A model generated the notes under the pieces. It saw only the letters and a list, made by a program, of their open reading frames with translations. It was not told where the DNA came from and made no database searches. The translations under genes were made by a program, and so were the position numbers. A stretch of 64,000 nt of DNA from Dictyostelium discoideum (Eukaryota): positions 4,096,001-4,160,000 of the forward strand of contig CM000153.2 of NCBI GenBank assembly GCA_000004695.1, in the 5' to 3' direction. Positions 2 to 59,652 of this stretch are shown one piece after another. The number at the start of each line of letters is the position of its first letter. Position 1 is the stretch's first letter.

Positions 2-1183
<1,182 letters not shown>

Positions 1184-7464: not shown

Positions 7465-8872
7465 TTAATTAAACTAATATTTATTTTTTTATTTATTTAT
7501 TTACTTTCTTTTAAACAGATCAGCATTTTATGACTTTTTAGCAACACAATTTTGTGTTGAAAATTTATTATGTTGGGAAGCAATTGAAAAATTTAAACAA
7601 ATTAATGGGTCACCATCTGAAATGTATTCGACTGCTGAAGAAATTTATTCATTGGTTAGTTTATTTTTTTTTTATTTTTTTTATTTTTTTTTATTTTTTT
7701 TTTTTTTAAAAAAATATTTTTTAATATTAATTTTTTTAATTTATTATTATTATTATAATTAGTTTATCAGAGATAATTCAAGATATGAAATTAATATTTA
7801 TGGTAAACAAAAAGACCGATTAAAGGAAACTTTAAAACATACATTTATAATACCAGAATTTTTAGAAAACAATAATAATAATTCTAATAATAATAATTCT
7901 AATAACAATAATTCTAATAATAGTAATAATAGTAGTCCATCATCTTCTGAAAATAATTTTGGAGGATTAACTCAAACAATTTCAACTTTAAATTTAAATA
8001 CCCCATCATCAAGTTCAAATAAAAATCATGATAAAAATCATGATAAAAGTAATAATAATAATAATAATTGTACAATTGTACAATCATCAACATTTATAAC
8101 AAATGCACCAATACAATCTGATACATTTCCAAAAAGAAAAAGAAAAATAAGATTTAGAAAATTAATATCGAAATCAAACCTTACAAATATATTTTCCGAC
8201 CCAAATAATAATAATAAATCTGCATCACTTACAAATATACATTCTCATACTAGTACATTACCACCACCACCAACAATATTACAAGAAATTATACATCCAC
8301 CATTATCACCTTCAAATACGATGAACTTTGATCCAGAATTTAAAAATATTGTTAATAATTTATCAAACAACAACAACAACAATAGCACTACAACTACAAC
8401 TACAACCAATTCAAATAATACACCAAATAATGGTTCAAATTGTGTGGTTGGATCATGCTCTGATAATGACTCGTTTGTTGTTATTTTTGGTAACACAATT
8501 GGTAATAGAAAGAGTGGTTCATCTTATGCTCTATCTGGTAGTGATAGTAGTGATGGAGAGTATGAGGATTTATTCGATAGAAATAATATAAAATTTGGTA
8601 TCGCTAAATGTTCAAACCTTTTCAATGATATTCAAGATGAATTGGAACAAATGATGATAGAGAATAGTTTGGGTGAATTTTTAAAATCAAAACTCTTTAA
8701 AGAGAAAACTTTGTACATACAACAACAACAACAACTACAACAACAACAACAACACCCAAATCAACAATTACAATGTATAGGTAACATTTCAAATACTTTA
8801 CCCACAATTACAAATTCAACTTTAATTACTTCAAAATCAAATAACAACGATAATTTAAATATTGTTAATTAG
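7161..8872 (+). CDS. RGS-domain protein (regulator of G-protein signalling) with a long low-complexity C-terminus
   Basis: Exons are 7161..7375, 7519..7654 and 7763..8872 (donors AG|GTAAAA and TTG|GTTAGT; acceptors AAACAG| and AATTAG|). Exons 1–3 encode an RGS box: FEVINNKDLRSAFYDFLATQFCVENLLCWEAIEKFKQI...EEIYSLFIRDNSRYEINIYGKQKDRL. Frame 2 is open from 7763 through the ORF-track 8321..8872 segment. Intron 1 contains an A-run of about 85 nt. Confidence 0.8.
7378..7462. repeat. poly(A) homopolymer of about 85 nt, inside intron 1 of the RGS gene
   Basis: Uninterrupted A-run read directly from the sequence. Confidence 0.9.
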
Positions 8873-8956
8873 TAAATTACTAAATTATATATTTTTAGAT
8901 TTTTAAATTCTTTTTTTTTTTATTTTTTTTTTTATTTTTTTTATTTTTTACTATTG

Positions 8957-8963
<7 letters not shown>

Positions 8964-9030
<67 letters not shown>
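8964..9030. repeat. poly(A) homopolymer of about 67 nt, 3' of the RGS gene
   Basis: Uninterrupted A-run read directly from the sequence. Confidence 0.9.
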
Positions 9031-9033
<3 letters not shown>

Positions 9034-9303
9034 AATAAATAAAATTTTTTCTAAACAAAAAAGTTTTTTTTTGTTTTTTTTACTCTAAAATCTGGGAAAA
9101 TCGATTTTTTTTTTTCTATTTTAGGATTTTTTTTTTTTTTTAGTATTTTTTTTTTAATTTTTTTTTTTTAAATTTTTTTTTTTTTTATTTTATTATTTTT
9201 TTTTTTTTTTTTTTGTTAAATTCATATAAAACAAAAAAATGTTTTGTATTAAAAAAAGATAAAAAAAAAATATAAAGAAATTATCAAAAAAAAATAAAAA
9301 AAA

Positions 9304-10351
9304 ATGAATTGGAAATATATTTGTTTAATAAATGTTTTTATAAATTATATTATTCTATTATATTTAAATTTTCGACAAATAAAAACAATTAAAAATAGTA
9401 AAATACCTAAAGAATTTAAAAATCTTTCAATAATAAATAAATCTGAATTTTTAAATTTAAAACAATTAAAATATAATTTAAAGTTTGTATTTTTGTTTAT
9501 AAAAAAAAGTAATTTGAAAATTTATTAATAAAAGATTTTATTTTATAAAAAAAAAAAAAAAAAAAAAAAAAAGAATATTTAAATTTATATCAACATTATA
9601 TAGTTTTATTAGTTTATTAGTATTTATTCTTTATTTATACCCTTTACTTTGGAATTTTTCAAATAATTTATCATCTATTGATAATAACCCTTTAAAAGAT
9701 GAAGTAAGTTTTAAATTTAATTTTTTAATTTTTTTTTTTTTTTTTTATCATTTCTAATTATACTTTTTTTTCTTTTCAATTAAATCATTCTTTTATAGAT
9801 AGTTGCAACAATAGTTTTTTTTTCAATTAAATCATTTTTATCATTAATTTTAAATTTCCCAATTTCATATTATCAAACATTTGTTTTAACAGATGAATTT
9901 AATTCAAGGAATATTAAATTATTTCTACAAGATAAAGCTTTAAATGTTATTTTCTTAGTTATAATTTATATACCATTAGTAACATTATCAATAACAGTTA
10001 TTAGAACTATTGATTTTAGGTATTGTTGGGTTTGTAAGTTTAAAAAAAATAAAAAATAAAAAAAAAATAAAATAAAATTAAAAAAAAAAAAATAAAATAA
10101 AATAAAATAAAAAAAAAAAAAAAAAAAAAACTAATTAATAAATTGTCAATATAAAATTATATAGATTGTACAATAATTTATTTATTATATGAAATTTTTA
10201 TAGATATTTTATATCCATCTTTAATTAAACCAAATTTTTTACCAAATGAATTAATACCAATGCCAGATGGAATTTTAAGAAAATCAATTCTAGAATTATG
10301 TAAAAATTGGTATAAAAAATCAAATTCACCTTCAAAAATTAAAAATAATAA

Positions 10352-10397
<46 letters not shown>

Positions 10398-11075
10398 TTT
10401 AATTTTAATGGTAATGATAATGATAATGATACAGGTGAAGGATGTGATAAAATTAATAATGAAGAAAATCAAATTAAAATATTAATATTAATGGATTATA
10501 AAAATTTTGAAATTAATAATAATCAAGATGATAATCAACAACAACATTTGAATACATATTGTTCATTATTAAATAAGCATATTGTTATTAATGAAAATTT
10601 AATAAAACGATATGATAAAGAAGAGATATTATCAATGGTTGCTCATGAAATCGGTCATTATAAACAACTCGATCAATTGACTAATTTAGTTATACCAACT
10701 TTTAATACTGCCTTGTTTTTATACTTGTTGAATCATTTCATTCAAAATGATATGGCATTTGTCGATTTCGGGTTATCTACAGTATCGTTGTATATGGGTT
10801 TACTATTATTTAGTTTTATTTATTTACCAATGGATACGATTTTCAAATCATTGCAAAATCATTTCATTAGACAACAAGAATATCAAGCTGATTTATTCTC
10901 TCAAAATATAATGGGTTGTAATCAATTCGCTTCACTTTTAAAAATTATTACAAAAGAAAATAATCCAATTTCAATTGATGATTATTGGTATTCTTTATTT
11001 TTTAATCCATATCCAACTTTTTATCAAAGATTTAAATATTTAGAAAATAGTTTAAAAAATAAAAAAATTAATTAA
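9304..11075 (+). CDS. CAAX prenyl protease 1 (Ste24/ZMPSTE24, M48 zinc metalloprotease), four exons
   Basis: Exon 1 is 9304..~9508 (alternative end 9482) and reads YLNFRQIKTIKNSKIPKEFKNLSIINKSEFLNLKQLKYNLKF, matching the yeast Ste24 N-terminus. Exon 2 is ~9621..9703 (alternative start 9604/9613). Exon 3 is 9799..10033 (PISYYQTFVLTDEFNSRNIKLFLQD). Exon 4 is 10204..11075 with PMPDGILRKSILEL, the HEXXH motif VAHEIGHYKQ and a downstream EYQAD. Exon 1/2 boundaries are ambiguous; exons 3–4 are phase-checked. Confidence 0.75.
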
Positions 11076-11381
11076 AAACAAAATGGTTACCATTCATTTT
11101 TTTTTTATATTTTATATCATTGTGTATTTTTGGGTGTTCTATTTTTACTAAATTCATATAAAAAAAAAATAAAAAAATGAAAATGTTCTTAAAGAATTTT
11201 TTTATTTTTTTTTTATTTTGAGTATAAAATTTGAATTGTTTTTATAAATAAAAAAATAAAAAAAAAAAAACTTTTTTTTAAAATAAAAAAAAAAAAAAAA
11301 AAAAGATACTTTTTTTTTTTTTTCATTCTTTCAAACATATTTTTTTTATTTTTTTAATCTTCTTTCAATTAAAAAGAGATA

Positions 11382-14603
<3,222 letters not shown>

Positions 14604-16360: not shown

Positions 16361-17195
16361 TTATTTCGAATTGATTGTTGAATCTTTAATTTCATTTAAA
16401 GTTTTTAAAATTGAATTAAAAGATGGACGTAAATTTGGATCAGCATTCCAACATTTAGTGATTAAAGAAGAATACATTCTATTACAATTTTGATTGATTG
16501 ATGGTCTTAAACCTGATAAGATATTATCTTCGAGAGTGCTCATAAATTTAAAATCGAACTCATCAAAAGGTAACTCTAAATGATAGCACTCCCAAAGAAT
16601 CATACCAAAACTATAGATATCGGATTTTTCATTGTATTCCATTCCTTTTAATACTTCGGGTGATTGCCAAGTTGGATTATCGACAACCTTTGAAGAGAAG
16701 TTTTGAACAATTGATCTTGATAGACCAAAATCTGAAACTTTTGCCGAGATTTCATTTGGATTGGTTGGATGAGAAGCCAATAGAATATTTGGACTTTTTA
16801 AATCACGATGTACCAATGGTGGTGTGATATTATGTAAAAACGCCATACCAGAGGCAATATCAGTGACAATCTTTAATAACATTTGCCAATCTAAAACTTG
16901 ACCATCTTCTTTTTTCTTTTTCAAAAATGATGATAAACTACCTATATCCATATATTCCATTACGATTGCATATGGTTCAAAACAAAATCCTTTCATCAAT
17001 ACGATGTTTGAATGTGATAAACCACTCATTAACCAAACTTCTCTTCTAAATTCATTAATTGCATTTAATTTACCACTTGAAATTTGATTCATTGAATCTT
17101 CACCTTGTGATGAATTACTTGATAATGAACTTGTTGATAAATTTCTTTGTAAAATCTTTGGTTGTTGCTGATTTTGTTGTTGTTGTTGTTGTTGC

Positions 17196-17277
<82 letters not shown>

Positions 17278-18367
17278 GATTTTGTTGAGTTTGTTGTTGT
17301 TGTTGTATATACAGTTTATTATTATTATTTAAATTATTTAAATTATTATTTAAATTATTATTATTATTATTATTATTTACAATTGGTGGTGATAAAGATG
17401 AAGTTGAAGAAGATAAAGAAATTGATAATGAAGAATTTGAAGGTGAAATTGTAAGACTATTTAAATTATTAAAACTTGTTGAATCGATTAAATCCATTCT
17501 TTCGAAATTGAATTGTTTAATTGCAACTGTATTATTTTTATAGATACCTTTATAAACACGACTAAAACCACCAACACCAATTTCCTCTTGATAGATTAAA
17601 TCCTCTTTTGAAACTTTTTTATTTGAAGATACTGAAGATAGAGTGATATCTGGTGAAATTTTACAAAGGGAAACCAATTTCATAGTGATTGGACATTTTG
17701 TATGTGATTCACCTTTACCAAAAGTTTCTTCAATTAAATCAATTGGGAAAAGGTGTGGTAAATCACGACATTCGCAACTACATGAGCAAGGTATATAAGT
17801 TTGTGATTGATTAATTTGATAATCCTTTAAGATGGTATCAACATTTTCTAAAACGATTTGAAATAGTTTTGCACATGCATCAAATTCATGGCCTCTTACA
17901 CGGATTTGTAATTGTTGAGTCACTGTATCAAATTCAACCAATGTGCCACAACTTGACATACTATCTTTGATGTTTTCACGATAGGTTTGAGTTTTTCTAA
18001 AGAGAATACCAGTACTCCAATAAACGATTGGTTCCATCATATAGAGGAATCTAACCATTACCCTTTCGAAACAATTCTTTGCTGAGATATTTCTAAATTG
18101 ATAATATCTTCCAATTTGATGTTCATCTTCACCACTCCATGTGTCCCAAAGTGAAGCTAAATGTGATGGTTTACCATTTGGTAATAAACATGGTATAATT
18201 ATACGATTAAATGATATATAACTACCATTTTGTAATAAATTACCACTACTATTACTATTACTATTTAAAATACTATTATTACTTAATGAAGATGAATTAT
18301 TTTCAATTGATTTTAAATTTTTTAATGAATTTCTTAAAAGTTTTGGTGATGTTGATATTGGTTGTGG

Positions 18368-18402
<35 letters not shown>

Positions 18403-19105
18403 CACTCTTATTATTATTATTATTATTTGGATTAGTAAATACAGATTGTGAAGAATTTGATAAACTTAATGAAGGTGAAGATGAAATTTCAGCTGATAAG
18501 GTTACAACTGTTGGTAATGGTGAAGATGATGATCTTGATTCAATTGAATAACTCATTGAATTTAAACTATTTTCTTTTGATAAATTTCCAAATGATTTTT
18601 GTTGTTGTTGTTGTTGTTGTAATTGTTGTAAATTTGAATTATTTTTTAAAGTATAAAGAATTTGATATCTTTCTAAAAGTTTTAATAATTTAATATGAAA
18701 TTGTTCTGGTACAATATTTGGTTTCCAAATATTTTTTAAATTACTTAATAATAAAATACCATCGGAATTAATGAATGAATGTTTTGCTAATAATAATTTA
18801 TAGAAACAATCACTAAACCATTGTGGATCTAAAATGACGAAATCTTTAAGTGAAGATTTTGAATCTTCAAACCAAATAATTGAACCCCATCTATTTAATG
18901 TATTTGTAGCACGTACTAATTTCTCATATGATGAAGTTGTAAAATTTGATAACTTTGCAATATTTTGATATTCATCCCATGTTACAATTGGTCTTTTCTT
19001 TGCTTCCTCTTGTAAATTAGTTTCTAATGTTATATAAATGCTTGGTATTCTTTCATTTAACCAATTTGTTGTTGAAATTGAATTACTTTGTTTATTATTA
19101 TTATA

Positions 19106-19140
<35 letters not shown>

Positions 19141-21474
19141 TTTGATTTAATAAAGTTTGAATTATTTCATTTTTTAATAAATCAATATTTCTTAAAGTTG
19201 TTGAAGAAACACCAATTACACCAGTGACTTCTAATGAACGTTGAGTTAAATATTGATCAATTTCATTTAATGGTACTAAAATATCACCACCATATTGATT
19301 AAAAGTATCTATATGAGTTGCAACTATATAGATTGGCGCATTTGGTGCTTTCTTTTTAATTGATTCAACCCAAAATTCCAAACCACTATGTGATAAATCT
19401 TTATTGATATCATAAGTAACTAAATAAAATGCACGTTCTGATAAAAAGAATTGATGAGTATGATAATAGACATCAATTGATGGCATTCTAAAATCATAAA
19501 TCATTAATTTTACATTTCTTTTTGTTGGTCTTTTCTTTTCTGGTGTTGTCATTGAAGAACCAAATGAATCTTTTCTTTGTGGTTTTAATTCTGATGTTGA
19601 TGATGATAGTTGTGTTGGTGGTGGTAAAGTACCAGTTGATAAATTTAAATTACTTGATGAAGTCATAATACCATTTTGTTGTTCAGGTGGTAAATCTAAT
19701 TTTAATTGAATTATTTCAATTGGGTCATTTAAAGATACTTCAGATGATGTAACTTTTTTTAAGAAATTAGCAGATTGTCTAGATAATGATTTAGTTTGAG
19801 ATTTTGTTAATGCTTTTACCAATGATGAACGACCAGTTTTTTCACTACCCAACACCATTAGTTTTATATGTGAAAGTGTTTCAGTACCTTCGAATAAATC
19901 TTTAAGATAACCAATTATATGAGTGAACCCTTTTGATGTGATTTCTTTTGGTGGTGATTTAATTATATCACGAGAGAAATCCAATTGTTCTAATAATGGT
20001 AGCGTTGAAAGGAATGAAGGTAACTCATTGATTTTATTTGACCCTAAAACATTCAAAGATTTCAATCTAACCAATAATCCCAACTCTTTTGGAATTTTAT
20101 TAATCTGTTTATTGAATGATAAATCCAATTTCTCTAAACTTTTCAAAGACCCAATCGATTCCGATATTGATGATAACTGATTGGCAGCCAATGATAACTC
20201 TTCTAAATTTGATAATTGAAAGACTACATTTGGTATAACTTGAAAGCAATTATGAGATAGTATTAGCTTAGTTAGGAGCTCCAATCTTGAAAAACTACTT
20301 GGTAATGTCGATAGTTGATTATGTGATAGATTACATGATTCTAAATTATAAAGTGTTGCAATTGATTCCAATTGATTACTCTCTGATAATTGATTGAATG
20401 ATAAATCAATAATACGTAAAAATTTACTAGTATTGATAATGGTTGTCGGTATAATTGAAATACATTTATGAGTTAAACATAAATCATCCAATCTCCTCAT
20501 TGCAACATGATTAATAATTGCTTCTGGTTTTGTTAAAAATTCATAAAAAACATTACCACAATCTTCAACAATTCTATTATCAAATGCTGGTATAGATGAT
20601 GTTGATAATGATAATGGTGATGATGAATATAATTGATTATTACTATTACTACTACTATTTAAAACTGATGCTGGTAATGTTGGTACTAAAAATCCACTAC
20701 CACTACTACTATTATTTAATAATGATGATGATGTTGTTGTTGTTGTTGTTGTTGCTGCTGTTGTTGATAATGATAATGATGATGACATTGTTGCTGTTGT
20801 TGATGATATTGATATTGGTGCTGTAAAACTTAAATTTAAAATGCTACTACTACTACTACTATTACTATTTGATTGTGATTGATTACTTAACTGTTGTAAT
20901 GATATTGAAGAAGGTATTGTAGTTGAAAGTGTTGAAGACATAACACCACCACCACCATTATTATTATTATTATTATTATTTGAAGAATTAAAGATTGTAC
21001 CAACTTCAATGAAAATATTTAAATGCATTAATGCAGAAGCTATTTGAATTGATTCTTTTCTTGTGACTTCTAATTTCTTTACTAGCCAATCAATTAATTG
21101 TGAACCTGAAAAACAAGAAATTGTTGTACCAGCTGCTCCTTTTTTCTTTTTTTGTAATTTTAAACCTTTATCTCCATTCATTAATTCTTGACTCAATTGA
21201 ATTAATTCATCTTTAACTAATGTCACTGTATTTAAATCTTCTAATACTACTTTTGATAATTCATTTATACTATATCTATGATGTTTTTTATTAAAACTAT
21301 TACTATTATATGTTGAATTTGAATTTGTATTTGTTGATGCTAATGATGATGATGTTGATGTTGTTGACGATGATGATGATGATGTTGATGACGATAATGA
21401 TGCTGTTACTAATACTGGTGGAGGTACTGATGATGTACGTCTACTACTATTATTATTACTATTACTATTATTAC

Positions 21475-21540
<66 letters not shown>

Positions 21541-21820
21541 TTTTATCAACAGCAGTTGATGATTTACTGCTTGATTTACCAATACTACCAATTTTAGTAG
21601 ATACTGGGGTTATAGGTGCTGTTGCTGTTGTTGCTGTTGATGTTGCATTATTATTATTATTATTTATATTATTATTATTTTTATTATTATCAAATTGATA
21701 AAATATATAATCATCTTTAAATATTGGATCTGCACCAGATGTAACATTACAAATAATACCCTAGTGGTAATTTTTTTGAAAAAATATAAAAAATGGTTTT
21801 TGAATAAATCTTGTGTTAAT

Positions 21821-21860
<40 letters not shown>

Positions 21861-22101
21861 TTTTTTAAAAAAAAAAAAAAAAAAGATTTATACTTACTGC
21901 ATCAAATAAAGTTTGACCTAATTTAATTGCATCTTCTCTTGTTTTTATATCTGGACAATTTCCAAAAATCCAATCAACGCATTCATAACCAACAAAAACT
22001 GATCTGTATGTTTTATATAAATAAGTTCTATCTTTAATTTGAAGTCCATCACTTGATTGAATTTTATCTTTCAATTTATTTAACTGGTTATAATCAAACA
22101 T
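16361..22101 (-). CDS. Roco-family protein: DEP-DEP-LRR-Roc(GTPase-like)-COR-protein kinase, about 1.9k aa, two exons
   Basis: Exon 1 is 22101..21898 (MFDYNQ...YRSVFVGYECVDWIFGNCPDIKTREDAIKLGQTLFDA, DEP domain 1; donor GCA|GTAAGT). Exon 2 is 21760..16361 (acceptor CACTAG|), opening with GIICNVTSGADPIFKDDYIFYQF to finish DEP 1. A second DEP follows (TISCFSGSQLIDWLVKKLEVTRKESIQIASALMHLNIFIEV). Then come many LRRs (LxxLxLSxNxLxxLP) and a Roc-like G domain (KLMVLGSEKTGRSSL). The kinase has VAIKQF, HRDLKSPNILL, VSDFGLS and SPEVL, with a Q-rich insert. The phase was checked across the 137-bp intron. Confidence 0.85.
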
Positions 22102-23611: not shown

Positions 23612-25103
23612 TTATTTATTGATTTGAGCAAAAATTAATGATAAAATTAAAACAATTATTGCCAAAATGAATAACGCCTTAATTACTATGTATAGATATA
23701 AAAAAAAAAAAAAAATTAATAAATCTTGGAAAAAAGATATATATATATTTATATTTATTAAACTTACATTTTGTTGAATTTGATTTACTACCAAATCCAA
23801 TTCTATGAGATTTACAATTATAATCAGCAGAGGAGGAGAAGATGGTAGAGTTATCAGGAGAGAAACAAGCACCGGTTACGACGAAATCATGAGGTTCCCA
23901 TTTATCTAGTGGTTTGAAAGTTTCAGAGTTGTAGGCAGTGATTTTGGCATCGGCAGTTACGATTACTATGGTTTTATTATCGGATGATAGGGCGAAACAG
24001 GTGTTATGGTAGATGTCGACCTCTTTGAATGACTCCTCTTTACCAGTTGTGAAATTCCATTTAGATAAAACCGTACAACCAATTGAATTCTTACCTTTGG
24101 GAATCGACTGAGCGGTATAACAATACAACCCATCCGAAGTGAATTTACAACCACGGAAAACCAATTTAGGTTTTTGTTTATGTAATAGAGTGAATTCGAT
24201 TTTACCATTCAATAAATTGATTATCTTTGCCGAGCAATCACGTGACGTTGTCAATATATGGCTTGATGCAGGGTGAATATCGATATCAGTGATCTCGCCA
24301 CTATGTTGGGGTGATATAATCTTTATGAAATTCAATGATGGTAAACTCCAAACTTTAATTAAATTCTTATCATCAACAATTATAATTCTATCACCATCTT
24401 TATTAAATTTAATTAACTTAATCTCTGTTGATAATGATGTTAATGTTGTTGAGCATAGTGATGGTGTTGATGATGCTGATGCTGATGATGGTGTTGTTGT
24501 TGTTGTTGACTCATTCTCATTATTGGTATTGGCTTCATTTGATTTTACGTCATTTAATGATGGTGATGATGAGGTTGCTTTAATTGCCAAATGGTATGCA
24601 TTTGATGGAATGTTTTTATTGATATCAAATTGTAAAACTTTTTCGAGTTTGTCGTTTTTATAATCTACAATATGGCAAATTGTGCCAACTGGGTAGGCAA
24701 TTTGATTTTTACTATCATTGAATGTAACGTAGGGTATACAATCTTCAGTATCCATTTGATCGATTAATTGAAACTCTGATGAGGATGATCCTTCTAAATT
24801 CCATTTTAATAATGTTATTGCATTTGGAACACCTGTTTTTGAATTACCACCACCACCACCTGTTACAATATATGGACTCTTTACATTTGTTGATGAACTA
24901 CAACAAAATACTGGATAATTTAATTTAATTTTATCTGTAGTTTTAATTGGTGCTTTTGTTGTAGTTGTTGTAGTTGTAGTTGTGATTTTCTTATTATTAT
25001 TATCATCATTATCTTCTTTTTTTATATTTCTTTGCTTTAATTTTGATGATGATGAAGATTCTTTTTCTTGTTTATTTTCTTTTTTTTTTATAGTTTTAGA
25101 CAT
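23612..25103 (-). CDS. Sec12/PREB-like WD40 protein (putative Sar1 GEF) with C-terminal transmembrane anchor, two exons
   Basis: Exon 1 is 25103..23768 (donor AAAAT|GTAAGT). Exon 2 is 23685..23612 (acceptor CATAG|) and encodes LIKALFILAIIVLILSLIFAQINK plus the stop. The N-terminal GGGGGNSKTGVPNAITLL matches the PREB/Sec12 GGGGxxKTGxxN motif. WD-like repeats include IKVWSLPS..., SRDCSAKIINL and YNCKSHRIGFG. The overall topology (cytosolic beta-propeller plus C-terminal TM) fits Sec12. Confidence 0.7.
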
Positions 25104-25938: not shown

Positions 25939-26106
25939 AAAATAAAAATAAAAAAATAAAAAACAAAAATAAAAAAACAAAAATAAATTAAAAAAATAAT
26001 AATAATCAAAAGATTTCACACATGATGTGTTTTTTTTCTTTTCTTTTTTTTTTTTTTTTTTTTTTTCTTTTGACCGTTTTGACTTGGTGGTCAAATTTAA
26101 AAAATT

Positions 26107-26471
26107 TTAAACGTTTAATTTTATTCTTTTTTTTGATGAAGTTATAAGTGGTGATGTTGAACCTTTTGGAACAACCTGTTCATCTATAGCCTCATTTAAA
26201 AATGGGTTGATTAAATTATTATTATTATTATTATTGTTATTATTATTATTATTATTATTATTCTGGAAAATAATTATTTTTATAAATAATAAATATTAGT
26301 TTAGATTCAATTTTAATTTTTAATTTTTAATTTTTTTCCCAAATTTAAAAATTTACATACGTTTAAATTTAATGGTTGTATTATTGGCAAATTATTATTA
26401 TTTAAATTATTATTGTTTAAATTATTATTATTATTTATATTATTATTATTATTTATATTATTATTATTTGA

Positions 26472-26534
<63 letters not shown>

Positions 26535-26778
26535 TAAATTATTTAAATTATTGTTTAGATTATTATTACTATTTGCAACAGCCAGTCTCCTTAATAAATC
26601 TCTTTCATTTCTAGGAGTTGTTGGGTTTGATGTGGAATTATTAGGAGTATTTAAAGCACTCAAGGGCGGTGGTGGTTGAGGAAATTGCATTTGTGGTGCA
26701 ACCATAGGTGTTGTAGGAACACTAAATGAGTTTGGTGTCGAAAAATCGTTATTATTATTATTATTATTATTACTATTA

Positions 26779-26819
<41 letters not shown>

Positions 26820-27338
26820 TACATTGGTTTGTTGTTGCTGTGGTAGTTGATCAACTACACTATTATTATTATTTGAAATATCCACTCTAAGATGTGGATG
26901 TTGGTGGTGTTGTTGTTGACCATGATGATGTTGAGGTGAAAGAGTAATATTATTATTATTATTAGGTATTGTTGTAGTAGTTGTTGTTGTTGTTGTAGTT
27001 GTTGTTGTAGGTGGTAATGAGTTTATAGAGATAATTGTATTTGGAGTCATCATTGGTTGAAGTGGTGGAGTTGTAATGGTATTTGGATGATTTAATAGGA
27101 ATGCAGAAGGTTGTGGTTGTAATGGTTGTATTGGTTGATTTACAACTTGATTTTGGTGTTGTTGTTGAAGTTGTTGTTGCTGTTGTTGGAGTAATTGTAA
27201 TTGTTGTTGATGATGCATTTGAATTTGGTGTAATGATAACAAGGATGGAGATGATAGAGGAGATGGTGAGTTTGGATCATTAGGTGGTATTATAAATGGT
27301 GGTACAGTTTGATATTGTTGAGATAACATTGGTTTCAA
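26107..27338 (-). CDS. Q/N/T-rich low-complexity protein, at least two exons; 5' end uncertain
   Basis: The main exon is 27338..26361 (donor AAC|GTATGT). The last exon is 26262..26107 (acceptor CCAG|; ...LINPFLNEAIDEQVVPKGSTSPLITSSKKRIKLNV, stop). The frame stays open upstream of the ORF-track start (which is a TTG), so the true start or another exon lies above 27338. Confidence 0.45.
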
Positions 27339-27419
27339 CGTTGGTGAATAAGTTGGTGTTAAATCCCTTATGAAATTATAAAAAATTATATATTGGAATT
27401 TATTATTTTAAAAATTAAA

Positions 27420-27467
<48 letters not shown>

Positions 27468-27625
27468 TTTCTAATTTTTAATAAACTCTTCTTTTTTTAA
27501 TTTTTTTTTTTTTTTTTTTTTTATCCTTTATTTTTGAAAATTTTAAAAAAAAAAAAATAAAAAATATTATATATAGTAGTGTTAGTATGTATTAATTTTG
27601 AAATAACTTATATATTTATTTATTT

Positions 27626-27665
<40 letters not shown>

Positions 27666-27846
27666 TTATAATGCCATCCCTTTTTATTGAAAAAAAAAAA
27701 AAAAAAAAATTAAATTAAATAAAATAAAAAAGGAAAACTTACATGTAATTCAAATATTTTTAGTATTAATACTAATAAAATAGAAATAGTAAGAGAGAAA
27801 GTATTGTGTTAGTGAGTGTGTTGTGTGAGTGTGTTTTAATTACCCC

Positions 27847-27881
<35 letters not shown>

Positions 27882-27939
27882 AAAGTTAAAAATTATAAAA
27901 AAAAAATTATTTATTTATTTATTTTTTTAATTTATTTTT

Positions 27940-28002
<63 letters not shown>

Positions 28003-56138: not shown

Positions 56139-57407
56139 ATGAAAAAACAAATATTTTTTATTATTTTACTTTTTACATTTTTATTTTTTATTAATAATAT
56201 AGAATCAAAGAATAATAGTGTACTTGGAAATTGTGAAAAGAATCAAACTGCAAAATATAAAAAGATATCATCCAAATATGGTAATGAAGAAATTAAAGAG
56301 ATTACAACCAATCAATTAAGCAAAGATCAACTTGAAAAACATGAAATGTTTATGAAGATTGCATTGGAAATAGCAATTAAAAGTAAAGTTAAATTCGTTT
56401 CCATCATTGTATCACCAGATGATCGTGTACTTTGTTCAGGTATCTTCTCAAAAGAGAATGCCATTCTTCATAGTGAATTGGTTGCCATTACAAATTGCAG
56501 TTCGTCCCATAAAATGGTAACTTTTGAAAATCATACAATCTATAGTACTGCCGAACCAGATTCATTGTCTTCTTCTGCCATCGTATGGGCACGTTTCAAA
56601 CAAGTTGTCTATGGCTCTTCAATTAAACATCTCTATTGTAATGCTTGCTTCTCAAGTTTACCAATTGATTCAACTTATATTTTCTCAAGAGGTTATGGTA
56701 TTGGAGTTGAAAATATCCAATTGGTTGCTGGTGTTTTACAAGATCAAACCGATGCAAACTTTGGTTCCTATTGTAATTCGTCAATATCTTCAGTTTATAA
56801 AACAAATCCACAATGTAAATGTAAAAATCCAAAATTATCAAAAGAAAATACCAACAACAACGATGATGGTGATGATGATAACAAAAACCATCATCGTCGT
56901 CATAGTCAAAATAATGAAATTGATGTTGATACTAAAAATGAAAGAAATCAACACCACCATGACAAAGATGATAGTATTGATAACTTTTTCGATGAAATAA
57001 AATCTGATGATGATTTTGATAAAAGAATTGAATCAGGTAAACAAGCTGAAAAGTCAAAGAATAAAGAAAAAAAGAAACATCATTCTCACCATCACTCTCA
57101 CACTAGTAAAGATGGTCGTAGTAGAACAAGTACAAGTACAAGTATTTCAGGTAATGGTCATGCAACTGCTTCTGCCTCTGCTTCTTCTTCTTCTTCTTCT
57201 ACTTCTTTCTCTCATTCTTCCTCTTCAAATGATCATCACCATAAAAAGGATAAATCAAATAAAAACAAAGACAACAAAGAAAAAGGTGATAAAAAAGATA
57301 AAAAAGATAAAAAAGAAAAGAAAGATAAGAAAAAAGATAAAAAAGATAAATCAACCTCTGTAGAAGAAGAAATCAATACCTTAAAAGTCGAAAAGAATTC
57401 AATTTAA
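56139..57407 (+). CDS. Secreted CMP/dCMP-deaminase-fold protein with substituted zinc ligands (probable pseudo-deaminase) and a His/Ser/Lys-rich tail
   Basis: An N-terminal signal peptide (MKKQIFFIILLFTFLFFINNIES) is followed by a deaminase-like core: EMFMKIALEIAIKS...VSIIVSPDDRVLCSGIFSKENAILHSELVAI...TIYSTAEPDSLSSSAIVWARFKQVVYGS. The canonical H[AC]E...PCxxC reads HSE...PDSLSSS here, so both zinc-binding Cys are replaced. The C-terminus is a HHxHH / poly-S / (KKDK)n tail. Confidence 0.65.
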   Translation: MKKQIFFIILLFTFLFFINNIESKNNSVLGNCEKNQTAKYKKISSKYGNEEIKEITTNQLSKDQLEKHEMFMKIALEIAIKSKVKFVSIIVSPDDRVLCSGIFSKENAILHSELVAITNCSSSHKMVTFENHTIYSTAEPDSLSSSAIVWARFKQVVYGSSIKHLYCNACFSSLPIDSTYIFSRGYGIGVENIQLVAGVLQDQTDANFGSYCNSSISSVYKTNPQCKCKNPKLSKENTNNNDDGDDDNKNHHRRHSQNNEIDVDTKNERNQHHHDKDDSIDNFFDEIKSDDDFDKRIESGKQAEKSKNKEKKKHHSHHHSHTSKDGRSRTSTSTSISGNGHATASASASSSSSSTSFSHSSSSNDHHHKKDKSNKNKDNKEKGDKKDKKDKKEKKDKKKDKKDKSTSVEEEINTLKVEKNSI

Positions 57408-57622: not shown

Positions 57623-59652
57623 TTAAATATTTAATATTTTAATTGAATCAGGTATTATACCAGGTTGAATTTGATTATTAACACCTTTAAATAGATACAT
57701 TTCTTTTACAGTTGAAGGGACACTACCTTTGGTAATAGGTGGTTTAAAGCTATATATTATTAAACGTGAAACATTTGATGGAATAGTCTTTGGATGAATT
57801 ATATGAGAGAAACCATTTCCTAATTGTAATTCTTTGACAGTGTTTGGAATTGAATAAGGACTTAGAGGATATTTAATATTATAAAAGAATAAAGATTCAA
57901 CAGAGGAGGGTATGATATCAGAGGTTATAGGTTGATCGAAACCATTACCGAAATGAATTTCTTTAATACCAAATGGGATAGAACCTTGATTTAGTTGTTG
58001 TTTTACGTCGCCAATATACAAAAGTTTAAGAGAATGAGGTATGATACTTGGAGTGATTGGATGATTGAAACCACTTCTTAAATAAAGTTCACGCAAAGTA
58101 CTAGGAATACAACCAGAGAGTAATGGTTGTTTAATTTCATAGAGGTATAGTTTCTCAATTGAGTCTGGTATTATATTTGGTAGAATAAATTGATTGAAAC
58201 CATTATTTAAATGTAATTCTGTCACACCATTGGCAATACTTCCAGGTTGTAATGGTTGTTTAATATCGTACAATACAACTTTGCTAACGGTACTTGGTAT
58301 AACATTTGGCGCAATAGTATGAGAGAATCCACTACAAAAATGAACTTCTTTGACTGTCGATGGTATACTATTAGTCTTTAATGGTTGTGCAATATCATAG
58401 AAAAATAATTTTTGAATTCCTTTTGGTAAAACATGACTTTCAAATTGATGATTAAATCCATTTAAAAAGTGAATCTCTTTAATTGTTTCCGGTATTCTTA
58501 ATTCATTAAACTTTATTTTATTTGATAAACCTAATGATGAAATATCACTTGGAATTGGTTCACCATGTGTAACATAATAATTAAAATTACCACCTAATAA
58601 AAAAAAAAAAAATTATTAGTATTATTTTATTTTTTATTTTTTATTTTTTTAAATGAAAACTTACATTTTGCTAATTTATTAATTAATAAATATTGATTAT
58701 CTTTATCTTTAAATTCTTTTGATTCAATATTATAAAAATTACCAATTGATTCAGTGAAAACATCTTCTAAATCTTGATCAAAATGAATTGTATTATCAGA
58801 GAAAGGTTGAAAACGATTTGATTTTTTCTTTTCAACTAATTGATTACAAATTTCAGTATCTTTTATTATTGAAAGTAATTGTTTTTCTTTTTGTTGATCG
58901 TACATATCGAATATATCATAATTTTCTAAACAATGGTTATGTCTACTTATTACAGCATCTATAAGGTCGGAATCTTGTTGTAGTTGATTTTTAATTTTTG
59001 TATATAACTCTTCGTTGTCCGCATGGTTGGACTCCAGTATCATTGAAACGTTTGATTCTAAATCCAAAAGGACTTGATGTAATTGTTTAAACTTTTGATG
59101 AATTTTAATTAGATTCTCTTGATGGCGTGATTCAACTAAACCAAAGCAATGATCGACTGCATTCGATACCACTTTATCACTCTCTCTGTATGCCATTATA
59201 TTTGGGAGTTGATTGGCTTTAAAACTTTCTACTATATATTGACCATTCATTTTATTGATCTCTGATATCTTGTGGCCGGCGTGGTTTTCATCTATACAAA
59301 TTGGGCATACTCCACTAAGACAATCTTCACAAACTGATGTTAAGTCTAATTGATTATGTTTTAAACATTTTATATCTACATTTAAATTAAATTCATCTTG
59401 ATGTTGAAAATATTTATTATTACTACTACTAGCATTATTCGTTATATTTGTATTTTTATTATTACTATTATTATTAATATTAATATTAATATTATTATTA
59501 TTATTTTCTATATGATTGGTTTTTTGTGGTGATTGATTAAGTCTTCCTAATTTCGATTGAAATAAGGCGACTTTATTATTACTTTGATAATAATTCTGAA
59601 AAGAAGCTTTATCTTGTAAATAATTTAAATCTTGATTATTATTTGAAATCAT
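57623..59652 (-). CDS. B-box zinc finger / coiled-coil / FNIP-repeat protein, two exons
   Basis: Exon 1 is 59652..58665 (B-box CEDCLSGVCPICIDENHAGHKI, then coiled coil; donor AAAAT|GTAAGT). Exon 2 is 58593..57623 (acceptor TATTAG|). It carries at least eight FNIP repeats (IPxSVKELxFGxGFNQPIxPxxIPxSL...). Confidence 0.8.

Follow-up and report, generated by a model that had tools for sequence, protein, structure and literature searches.

Does the Roc domain of a Roco kinase still work as a GTP switch when residues expected of a GTPase have been replaced? The question is raised by a gene in a 64,000-nucleotide stretch of Dictyostelium discoideum DNA (GenBank assembly GCA_000004695.1, contig CM000153.2, positions 4,096,001 to 4,160,000), which we call the window and to which positions below refer. 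The gene lies on the minus strand at 16361-22101, has two exons and encodes a product of 1867 residues. We identify it as D. discoideum roco8, a named gene whose architecture already stands in the public annotation. Its product is related to LRRK2, the Parkinson's protein. In sequence, its Roc domain is a conserved but non-canonical G domain. We give about an even chance to the account that this Roc still binds nucleotide, is not a normal hydrolysing switch, and forms with COR a scaffold for an active kinase.

The identification answers a question left by an earlier note on this DNA, which was made from the sequence alone and asked which annotated Roco gene this is. A D. discoideum protein from an independent annotation (P0290, 1836 residues) has the same N-terminus and exon junction as the window model and is 94% identical to it over 100% of the length, with almost all of the differences in homopolymer tracts. 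The gene model is as follows.

21898..22101, minus strand: exon 1, codons 1-68, 204 nt, with the ATG at 22101 and an N-terminus identical to P0290
21761..21897, minus strand: the sole intron, 137 nt, within the first DEP domain (DEP1), with a GTAAGT donor at 21897 and its AG end at 21761
16361..21760, minus strand: exon 2, codons 69-1867 and the stop, 5400 nt

Both the reading frame and the alignment to DEPTOR run unbroken across the junction. After P0290, the next relative is the D. purpureum protein annotated as "roco8, ROCO family protein" (XP_003290422.1), at 70-75% identity (75% over Roc-COR). In an exhaustive search of representatives, the top three matched at E <= 1e-171 and the next at 1e-52, a drop from orthologue to paralogue. 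Because of this fall the orthogroup is sharply delimited, and the nearest relatives, the gap to the paralogues, the architecture and the neighbourhood all place the gene within it. An exact-match database look-up of the 1867-residue protein returned nothing; the nearest entry was a D. discoideum protein with other repeat lengths. Within the open-access literature, a coverage outside which the primary Roco papers fall, roco8 is unmentioned.

G motifs of the Roc domain

Pfam gives the domain order as DEP, DEP, leucine-rich repeats (LRRs), Roc, COR and kinase, just as the earlier note had it. The scores are 105 bits for DEP in two stretches, 32.7 for Roc, 85.8 for COR-A and 174 bits for the kinase. 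The Roc score is to be set against a cut-off of 27, and the match is confined to the C-terminal two-thirds of the profile. That Roc is directly followed by COR, the arrangement that defines the Roco family, is found by Pfam, by phmmer and by an AlphaFold2 (AF2) model searched with Foldseek. The Roc-COR-A part of the model has a normal G-domain core, with a predicted local distance difference test score (pLDDT) of 73.7 and a predicted template modelling score (pTM) of 0.72. Its top Foldseek matches are LRRK1, the RocCOR of Roco2 from M. barkeri (MbRoco2; TMt 0.77) and LRRK2, with a probability of 1.00. A predicted G-domain fold is retained and motifs on it are degenerate, the combination looked for in a pseudoGTPase. 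The features of this part of the protein are these.

19145..19879, minus strand: Roc G domain, residues 696-940; Pfam Roc and Ras, phmmer against PDB (MbRoco2, LRRK2, LRRK1), AF2 with Foldseek
19823..19849, minus strand: G1 or P-loop GSEKTGRSS, residues 706-714; R712 is CGT at 19831..19829
19715..19735, minus strand: switch I/G2 SLNDPIE, residues 744-750; Asn at the conserved Thr position in the MAFFT alignment against the paralogues' STDGIxI
19514..19696, minus strand: low-complexity insert of Roc between beta2 and beta3, residues 757-817; AF2 pLDDT < 50
19463..19495, minus strand: G3/switch II DFRMPSIDVYY, residues 824-834; Asp kept, Gly and Gln lost, 2 extra residues
19307..19324, minus strand: G4 VATHID, residues 881-886, retained
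18632..19045, minus strand: COR-A, residues 974-1111; Pfam PF16095 at 3.5e-24, LRRK2 alignment
17645..18220, minus strand: COR-B, residues 1249-1440, between COR-A and kinase; 60-81% identity to orthologues, no Pfam match listed

The earlier note read the P-loop as GSEKTGRSS with the invariant Lys replaced by Arg. This reading holds. The segment IKLMVLGSEKTGRSSLVKAL is aligned by phmmer to the P-loops of MbRoco2 (GdgeaGKts) and LRRK2 (GntgsGKtt), so that the Arg falls on the Lys of both. The codon of R712, CGT, is at least two substitutions away from a Lys codon, AAR. The note had also allowed that a canonical P-loop might lie elsewhere in Roc, and none does: a scan of the whole 1867-residue protein for [AG]xxxxGK[ST] found no occurrence.

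The degeneracy goes beyond G1, which is all that the earlier note had reported. Switch I can be placed in two registers, one from the phmmer alignment to LRRK2 (QSATV/QSANF) and one from MAFFT (STDGI/LNDPI), and both give Asn, not Thr. In switch II the Asp of G3 is followed by neither the Gly nor the Gln. The canonical set of GxxxxGK[ST], switch I Thr and DxxG is thus not what roco8 carries over G1 to G3, and the THID of G4 and the Ser of G5 are present. A DSFG at residue 799 was considered as an alternative G3 and rejected; it lies within a non-conserved low-complexity insert and is absent from the orthologues. The disordered beta2-beta3 insert of Roc is 40-70 residues long.

Conservation across the Dictyostelia

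The set of roco8 orthologues comprises 11 dictyostelid sequences, two of them from D. discoideum. None of the 11 has the switch I Thr; N, A, L, Q or G is found at that position, where the paralogues have STDGIxI. All 11 have DF[RK][MF]xxx with two extra residues in place of a WDFAGQ-type switch II, and a DxxG of that type is present in 110 of 148 aligned Roco relatives. The D. purpureum protein has the same domain order as D. discoideum, a GxxxxGRSS P-loop and DFKMPS for DxxG. The two differ only at the species level, the poly-N and poly-Q inserts being longer in D. discoideum.

The P-loop Lys position has a different history. It is Arg in six orthologues and Lys in five, and never another residue. 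The Arg group consists of the two D. discoideum sequences, D. purpureum, Polysphondylium violaceum, a related protein from a metagenome and Synstelium polycarpum, and the Lys group of Tieghemostelium lacteum, a EukProt species, Acytostelium subglobosum, Heterostelium album and Cavenderia fasciculata. Among the other Roco relatives, all 114 with a detectable P-loop (of 150) have Lys, and Arg is confined to the roco8 orthogroup. A neighbour-joining tree over 939 gap-free columns puts Dictyostelium and P. violaceum in one clade with 94% bootstrap, and lineages bearing Lys fall between that clade and Synstelium. With this topology and the pattern of Lys and Arg, there must have been at least two independent changes from Lys to Arg, whatever the root. 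The order of events that we reconstruct from the sequences is loss of G2 and G3 first, in the common ancestor before the dictyostelid radiation, and repeated conservative replacement of Lys by Arg later, in at least two lineages.

What has been kept is equally consistent. All 11 orthologues have the P-loop glycines and Ser/Thr, the G3 Asp, the G4 Asp and the G5 Ser. G4 reads THxD in 10 of them, the remaining one being T. lacteum with TMID. In a 12-sequence alignment that leaves out T. lacteum, the columns without any variation include the G4 His as well as the two P-loop glycines, the G3 Asp, the G4 Asp and the G5 Ser. Identity among the orthologues is 56-80% over the Roc core, about equal to that over COR-A and COR-B. 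By this measure, the Roc is a domain that is being maintained, not one that is decaying.

The kinase that follows COR is divided by an insert, as listed here.

17510..17602, minus strand: start of the kinase N-lobe, residues 1455-1485; G-loop IGVGGFSRV, VAIK in beta3
17063..17509, minus strand: poly-N/poly-Q insert of ~150 residues between the beta3 Lys and helix alphaC, residues 1486-1634
16397..17062, minus strand: the rest of the kinase, residues 1635-1856; EFRREV, HRDLKSPN, DFG, SPE; PK_Tyr_Ser-Thr at 3.2e-51, Roco4 (4f0f) at 1.1e-47

It is of the tyrosine kinase-like (TKL) type, with matches in PDB to CTR1 and to Roco4, the nearest (1.1e-47). With LRRs N-terminal of Roc, a TKL kinase after COR and the catalytic residues in place, roco8 is a Roco kinase by all of its parts. 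The earlier note's statement that the kinase keeps all catalytic motifs is borne out by VAIK, EFRREV, HRDLKSPN, DFG and SPE, with the qualification that the third Gly of the G-loop is Ser. Across the orthologues, VAIK, the alphaC Glu, HRDLKSPN, DFG and [AS]PE are present in 11 of 11, and every one has Ser or Ala in place of the third Gly of GxGxxG. The insert between the beta3 Lys and alphaC also occurs in all 11 (59-153 residues). In D. discoideum it includes about 40 consecutive Gln; in the other orthologues it is shorter (59-98 residues). Of the ROCO kinases, roco10 alone was predicted to be inactive in a survey of the Dictyostelium kinome (PMC1420674).

Degenerate motifs were also seen elsewhere among the Roco relatives. 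In four proteins (P0254, P0264, P0208 and P0162) the P-loop is degenerate, with VGTAKTAL and VGSNGPAKAV as examples, or G3 is without Gly; two of the four come from the testate amoeba Pyxidicula operculata. A degenerate P-loop or G3, to judge from these alignments, is not unique to roco8. Two further sequences from metagenome or ENA (Logan) data, P0188 and P0198, pass from DEP directly to beta3 and switch II of Roc (YDFAGQ...), with no beta1 or P-loop upstream. They are either truncated Roc domains fused to DEP or gene-model artefacts.

Binding, switching and scaffolding

The pattern common to the orthologues is that of a G domain in which the sensors of the gamma-phosphate (Thr of switch I, Gly of switch II), along with the adjacent Gln, are lost and the residues binding the phosphates and the guanine base are kept. 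A P-loop position restricted to Lys or Arg, with the G3 Asp, the G4 Asp, the G5 Ser and the glycines in place, looks like retained nucleotide binding and not like a dead pocket. In the account that we favour, the guanine nucleotide bound by Roc would serve chiefly as a structural cofactor and less for switching, with little or no intrinsic hydrolysis of GTP and no classical switch movement. Roc-COR would serve mainly as a scaffold that positions the intact kinase, and regulation might come through other inputs, such as recruitment to membranes or partners by the DEP domains, or the LRRs. What the sequences show is the motif pattern and its conservation; nucleotide binding, the loss of hydrolysis and the role of the DEP domains are our inference. 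The earlier note's idea of a regulatory pseudo-GTPase is somewhat strengthened, since all 11 orthologues have lost Thr in switch I and DxxG(Q) in switch II too, and it is not established. Its fullest form is that this lineage, older than the dictyostelid radiation, has a Roc that goes through no functional GTP cycle and is a pseudo-GTPase in the true sense, that the kinase is active, and that control has moved to the tandem DEP domains. We put this forward tentatively, as having rather less than an even chance.

Several points weigh against a Roc that holds nucleotide without switching. Five orthologues have a canonical GK[ST], and for that reason the Arg is not a family-wide trait. Replacement of Lys by Arg is conservative and often spares nucleotide binding in other P-loop nucleoside triphosphatases. 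The AF2 model informs on the fold and is silent on ligand binding, and regulation through the DEP domains is purely something that we infer. The most direct point comes from GbpC (Dictyostelium roco1), which like roco8 is a Roco kinase with a DEP domain. In orthologues of GbpC, too, the switch I Thr and the G3 Gly are missing, and there is a report that the Roc of GbpC binds GTP-agarose and undergoes exchange through the RasGEF domain that GbpC itself carries (PMC6320773). Given that precedent, motif loss alone is no proof of lost switching, and the pseudo-GTPase is to be treated as a hypothesis. It might then be asked whether the Roc of roco8 is itself a working, regulated GTP switch built on non-canonical residues, as in GbpC, with the Arg replacing the P-loop Lys functionally. 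This seems to us possible but on the unlikely side. It would fit a Roc core conserved as well as COR, a P-loop position that is exclusively Lys or Arg, and the invariance of G4, G5, the G3 Asp and the P-loop glycines. It also has the example of GbpC-like proteins from T. lacteum (P0170) and C. fasciculata (P0306), whose switch II reads WDILNQ or WDITN and which have no switch I Thr or G3 Gly and keep GK[ST]; non-canonical switch regions in Roc are therefore not restricted to roco8, and GbpC is reported to be GTP-binding and regulated by a guanine nucleotide exchange factor (GEF) (PMC6320773). However, the parallel is incomplete. GbpC keeps the P-loop Lys and the Gln, and its own RasGEF and cGMP-binding domains drive Roc. 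In roco8 the Gln after G3 is missing as well, switch II has the two-residue insertion, the Lys is gone in six sequences, and the Arg occurs in none of the 114 other Roco relatives. The DEP domains of roco8 are N-terminal and in tandem, and a Pfam scan of the protein found no GEF domain and no GTPase-activating protein (GAP) domain.

The opposite extreme is a Roc that is a nucleotide-free class i pseudo-GTPase, with neither binding nor hydrolysis, kept only because its fold serves as a scaffold between the LRRs and COR. The joint loss of the G1 Lys (in D. discoideum), the G2 Thr and the G3 Gly and Gln points that way, as does the large disordered insert beside the switch regions, and in other proteins there are documented class i pseudoGTPases whose fold is intact (PMC12490416, PMC5593906). 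We nevertheless consider it distinctly unlikely. The spacing GxxxxG[KR][ST], the G4 Asp and the G5 Ser in 11 of 11 orthologues, with the G4 His in 10, are hard to explain without a ligand, and documented class i domains typically lose the G1, G4 and G5 motifs too. It could also be supposed that the degenerate P-loop is no more than an artefact of sequencing, alignment register or gene model. For this there is the weakness of the Pfam Roc match and its confinement to part of the profile, and nothing else. A single-base error at R712 is excluded by the distance of CGT from Lys, and sequencing error in general by the Arg in an independent D. discoideum assembly, in D. purpureum, in P. violaceum, in the metagenome sequence and in Synstelium. 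MAFFT concurs with phmmer on the register of G1, the protein offers no other GxxxxGK[ST] to align, and the gene model agrees with the independent annotation of P0290. We regard the artefact as refuted, with next to no probability left to it.

Among the characterised Roco kinases, LRRK2, LRRK1 and Roco4 share with roco8 the LRR-Roc-COR-kinase core and the fold of Roc-COR. Those three keep GK[ST], DxxG and the Thr of switch I, all of which roco8 lacks. It also differs from them in having DEP domains instead of ARM, ANK and WD40, and in the large stretches of low complexity inserted into its Roc and its kinase N-lobe. Atypical small GTPases that may be set beside roco8 are Rnd and RhoH, the RGK proteins with DxWE in G3, and the IRGM "GMS" proteins with Met for the P-loop Lys. 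Like the Roc of roco8, the pseudoGTPase domains of p190RhoGAP and AAGAB have a G fold with degenerate motifs, and those act as regulatory or scaffolding modules (PMC5593906, PMC12490416). Unlike these pseudo- and atypical GTPases, the Roc of roco8 is embedded in a Roco kinase and keeps most of the scaffold that binds base and phosphates. In LRRK2, LRRK1 and Roco4, kinase output is linked to GTP binding (PMC6337361, PMC6320773).

DEP domains, neighbourhood and bearing on Roco kinases

The region N-terminal of Roc is laid out as follows.

21686..22047, minus strand: DEP1, spanning the intron, residues 19-93; Pfam PF00610 at residues 19-91, DEPTOR at 4.6e-16, P-Rex1 at 3e-14
20990..21190, minus strand: core of the second DEP domain (DEP2), residues 259-325; second Pfam DEP stretch, DEPTOR at 4.5e-06, a match to the pleckstrin DEP, AF2 pLDDT 74-83
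20531..20578, minus strand: putative displaced C-terminal strand of DEP2, residues 463-478 (...VEDCGNVFYEFLT), weakly indicated by [FY]YEF[LI]TKPEAI conserved in orthologues
19961..20500, minus strand: LRRs, ~7 and a cap, residues 489-668; Pfam LRR_14, LRR_8 and LRR_4 at residues 511-664, repeats parsed by hand

Two copies of DEP match PF00610 significantly, DEP2 being the weaker. The earlier note had DEP1 split by the single intron, and this is correct: the intron falls after codon 68, inside a domain of residues 19-93. DEPTOR and P-Rex1, the best matches of DEP1 in PDB, are likewise two-DEP proteins. Unlike in those proteins, the DEP domains of roco8 are ~165 low-complexity residues apart and DEP2 is apparently interrupted. 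The DEP2 core is followed by ~135 low-complexity residues and then by a conserved segment (...VFYEFLTKPEAI) resembling the last strand of DEP1 (IFYQF). AF2 places a strand at residues 463-478 with a pLDDT of ~64, in a model whose overall pLDDT of 45.8 is of low confidence. DEP2 appears, if only weakly, to be split by a low-complexity insert (20531-21190, residues 259-478). The LRRs are fewer than the earlier note's estimate of about 15. The region spans 180-190 residues, ~489-680, and holds ~7 repeats plus a capping repeat, ~8 in all. There is no room for 15, because the sequence on either side is of low complexity.

Directly upstream of roco8 is a gene with WD40 repeats, at 23679..25103 on the minus strand. 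In C. fasciculata a matching WD40 gene lies upstream of the roco8 orthologue (L001 1621-3416), and in two gene models, from Synstelium polycarpum (P0124) and a EukProt species (P0294), the WD40 gene is fused to the roco8 orthologue. The adjacency seems to be conserved across the Dictyostelia. The C. fasciculata orthologue itself (GL883010.1, L001 4643-11725) is annotated as three genes, with DEP, Roc and kinase (DFA_00688), respectively. Over L001 ~8150-11690, one continuous frame aligns to LRR-Roc-COR-kinase, and the annotation looks like a fragmented gene model.

The window as a whole is very AT-rich, with a GC content of 0.12-0.27 and many coding tracts of poly-N and poly-Q, as is typical of Dictyostelium. 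A spike in GC skew (0.46, 26000-28000) was considered as a special feature and rejected as a compositional effect; it coincides with a Q/N/T/P-rich low-complexity open reading frame (ORF) at 26313-27338 on the minus strand and with ATT/TTA microsatellites. Other ORFs with Pfam matches are these.

83-1183, plus strand: ATPase domain of an ABC transporter
11838-14603, plus strand: 921 residues with a match to the peptidoglycan-binding PG_binding_1 at 3.1e-09, odd-looking for an amoeba
56139-57407, plus strand: zinc-binding domain of cytidine/dCMP deaminase
58627-59652, minus strand: B-box zinc finger

For LRRK2 and the rest of the Roco family, the central question is how the kinase is controlled by the Roc GTPase. 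Both the gene and its architecture were annotated before; the contribution made here is to describe how the motifs decayed in evolution, and it is not a new kind of system. In roco8, a genetically tractable organism has a Roco protein with an intact kinase and with the gamma-phosphate sensors lost in every orthologue and the P-loop Lys in several, which makes it a natural comparison with Roco4 and GbpC. If no GTP cycle is involved in the activity and regulation of its kinase, then Roc-COR can serve as a static scaffold. If it still cycles GTP, then the requirements for a G domain must be relaxed. Should the pseudo-GTPase reading prove right, nature would have shown in roco8 that a Roco/LRRK-type kinase can work without a Roc GTPase cycle.

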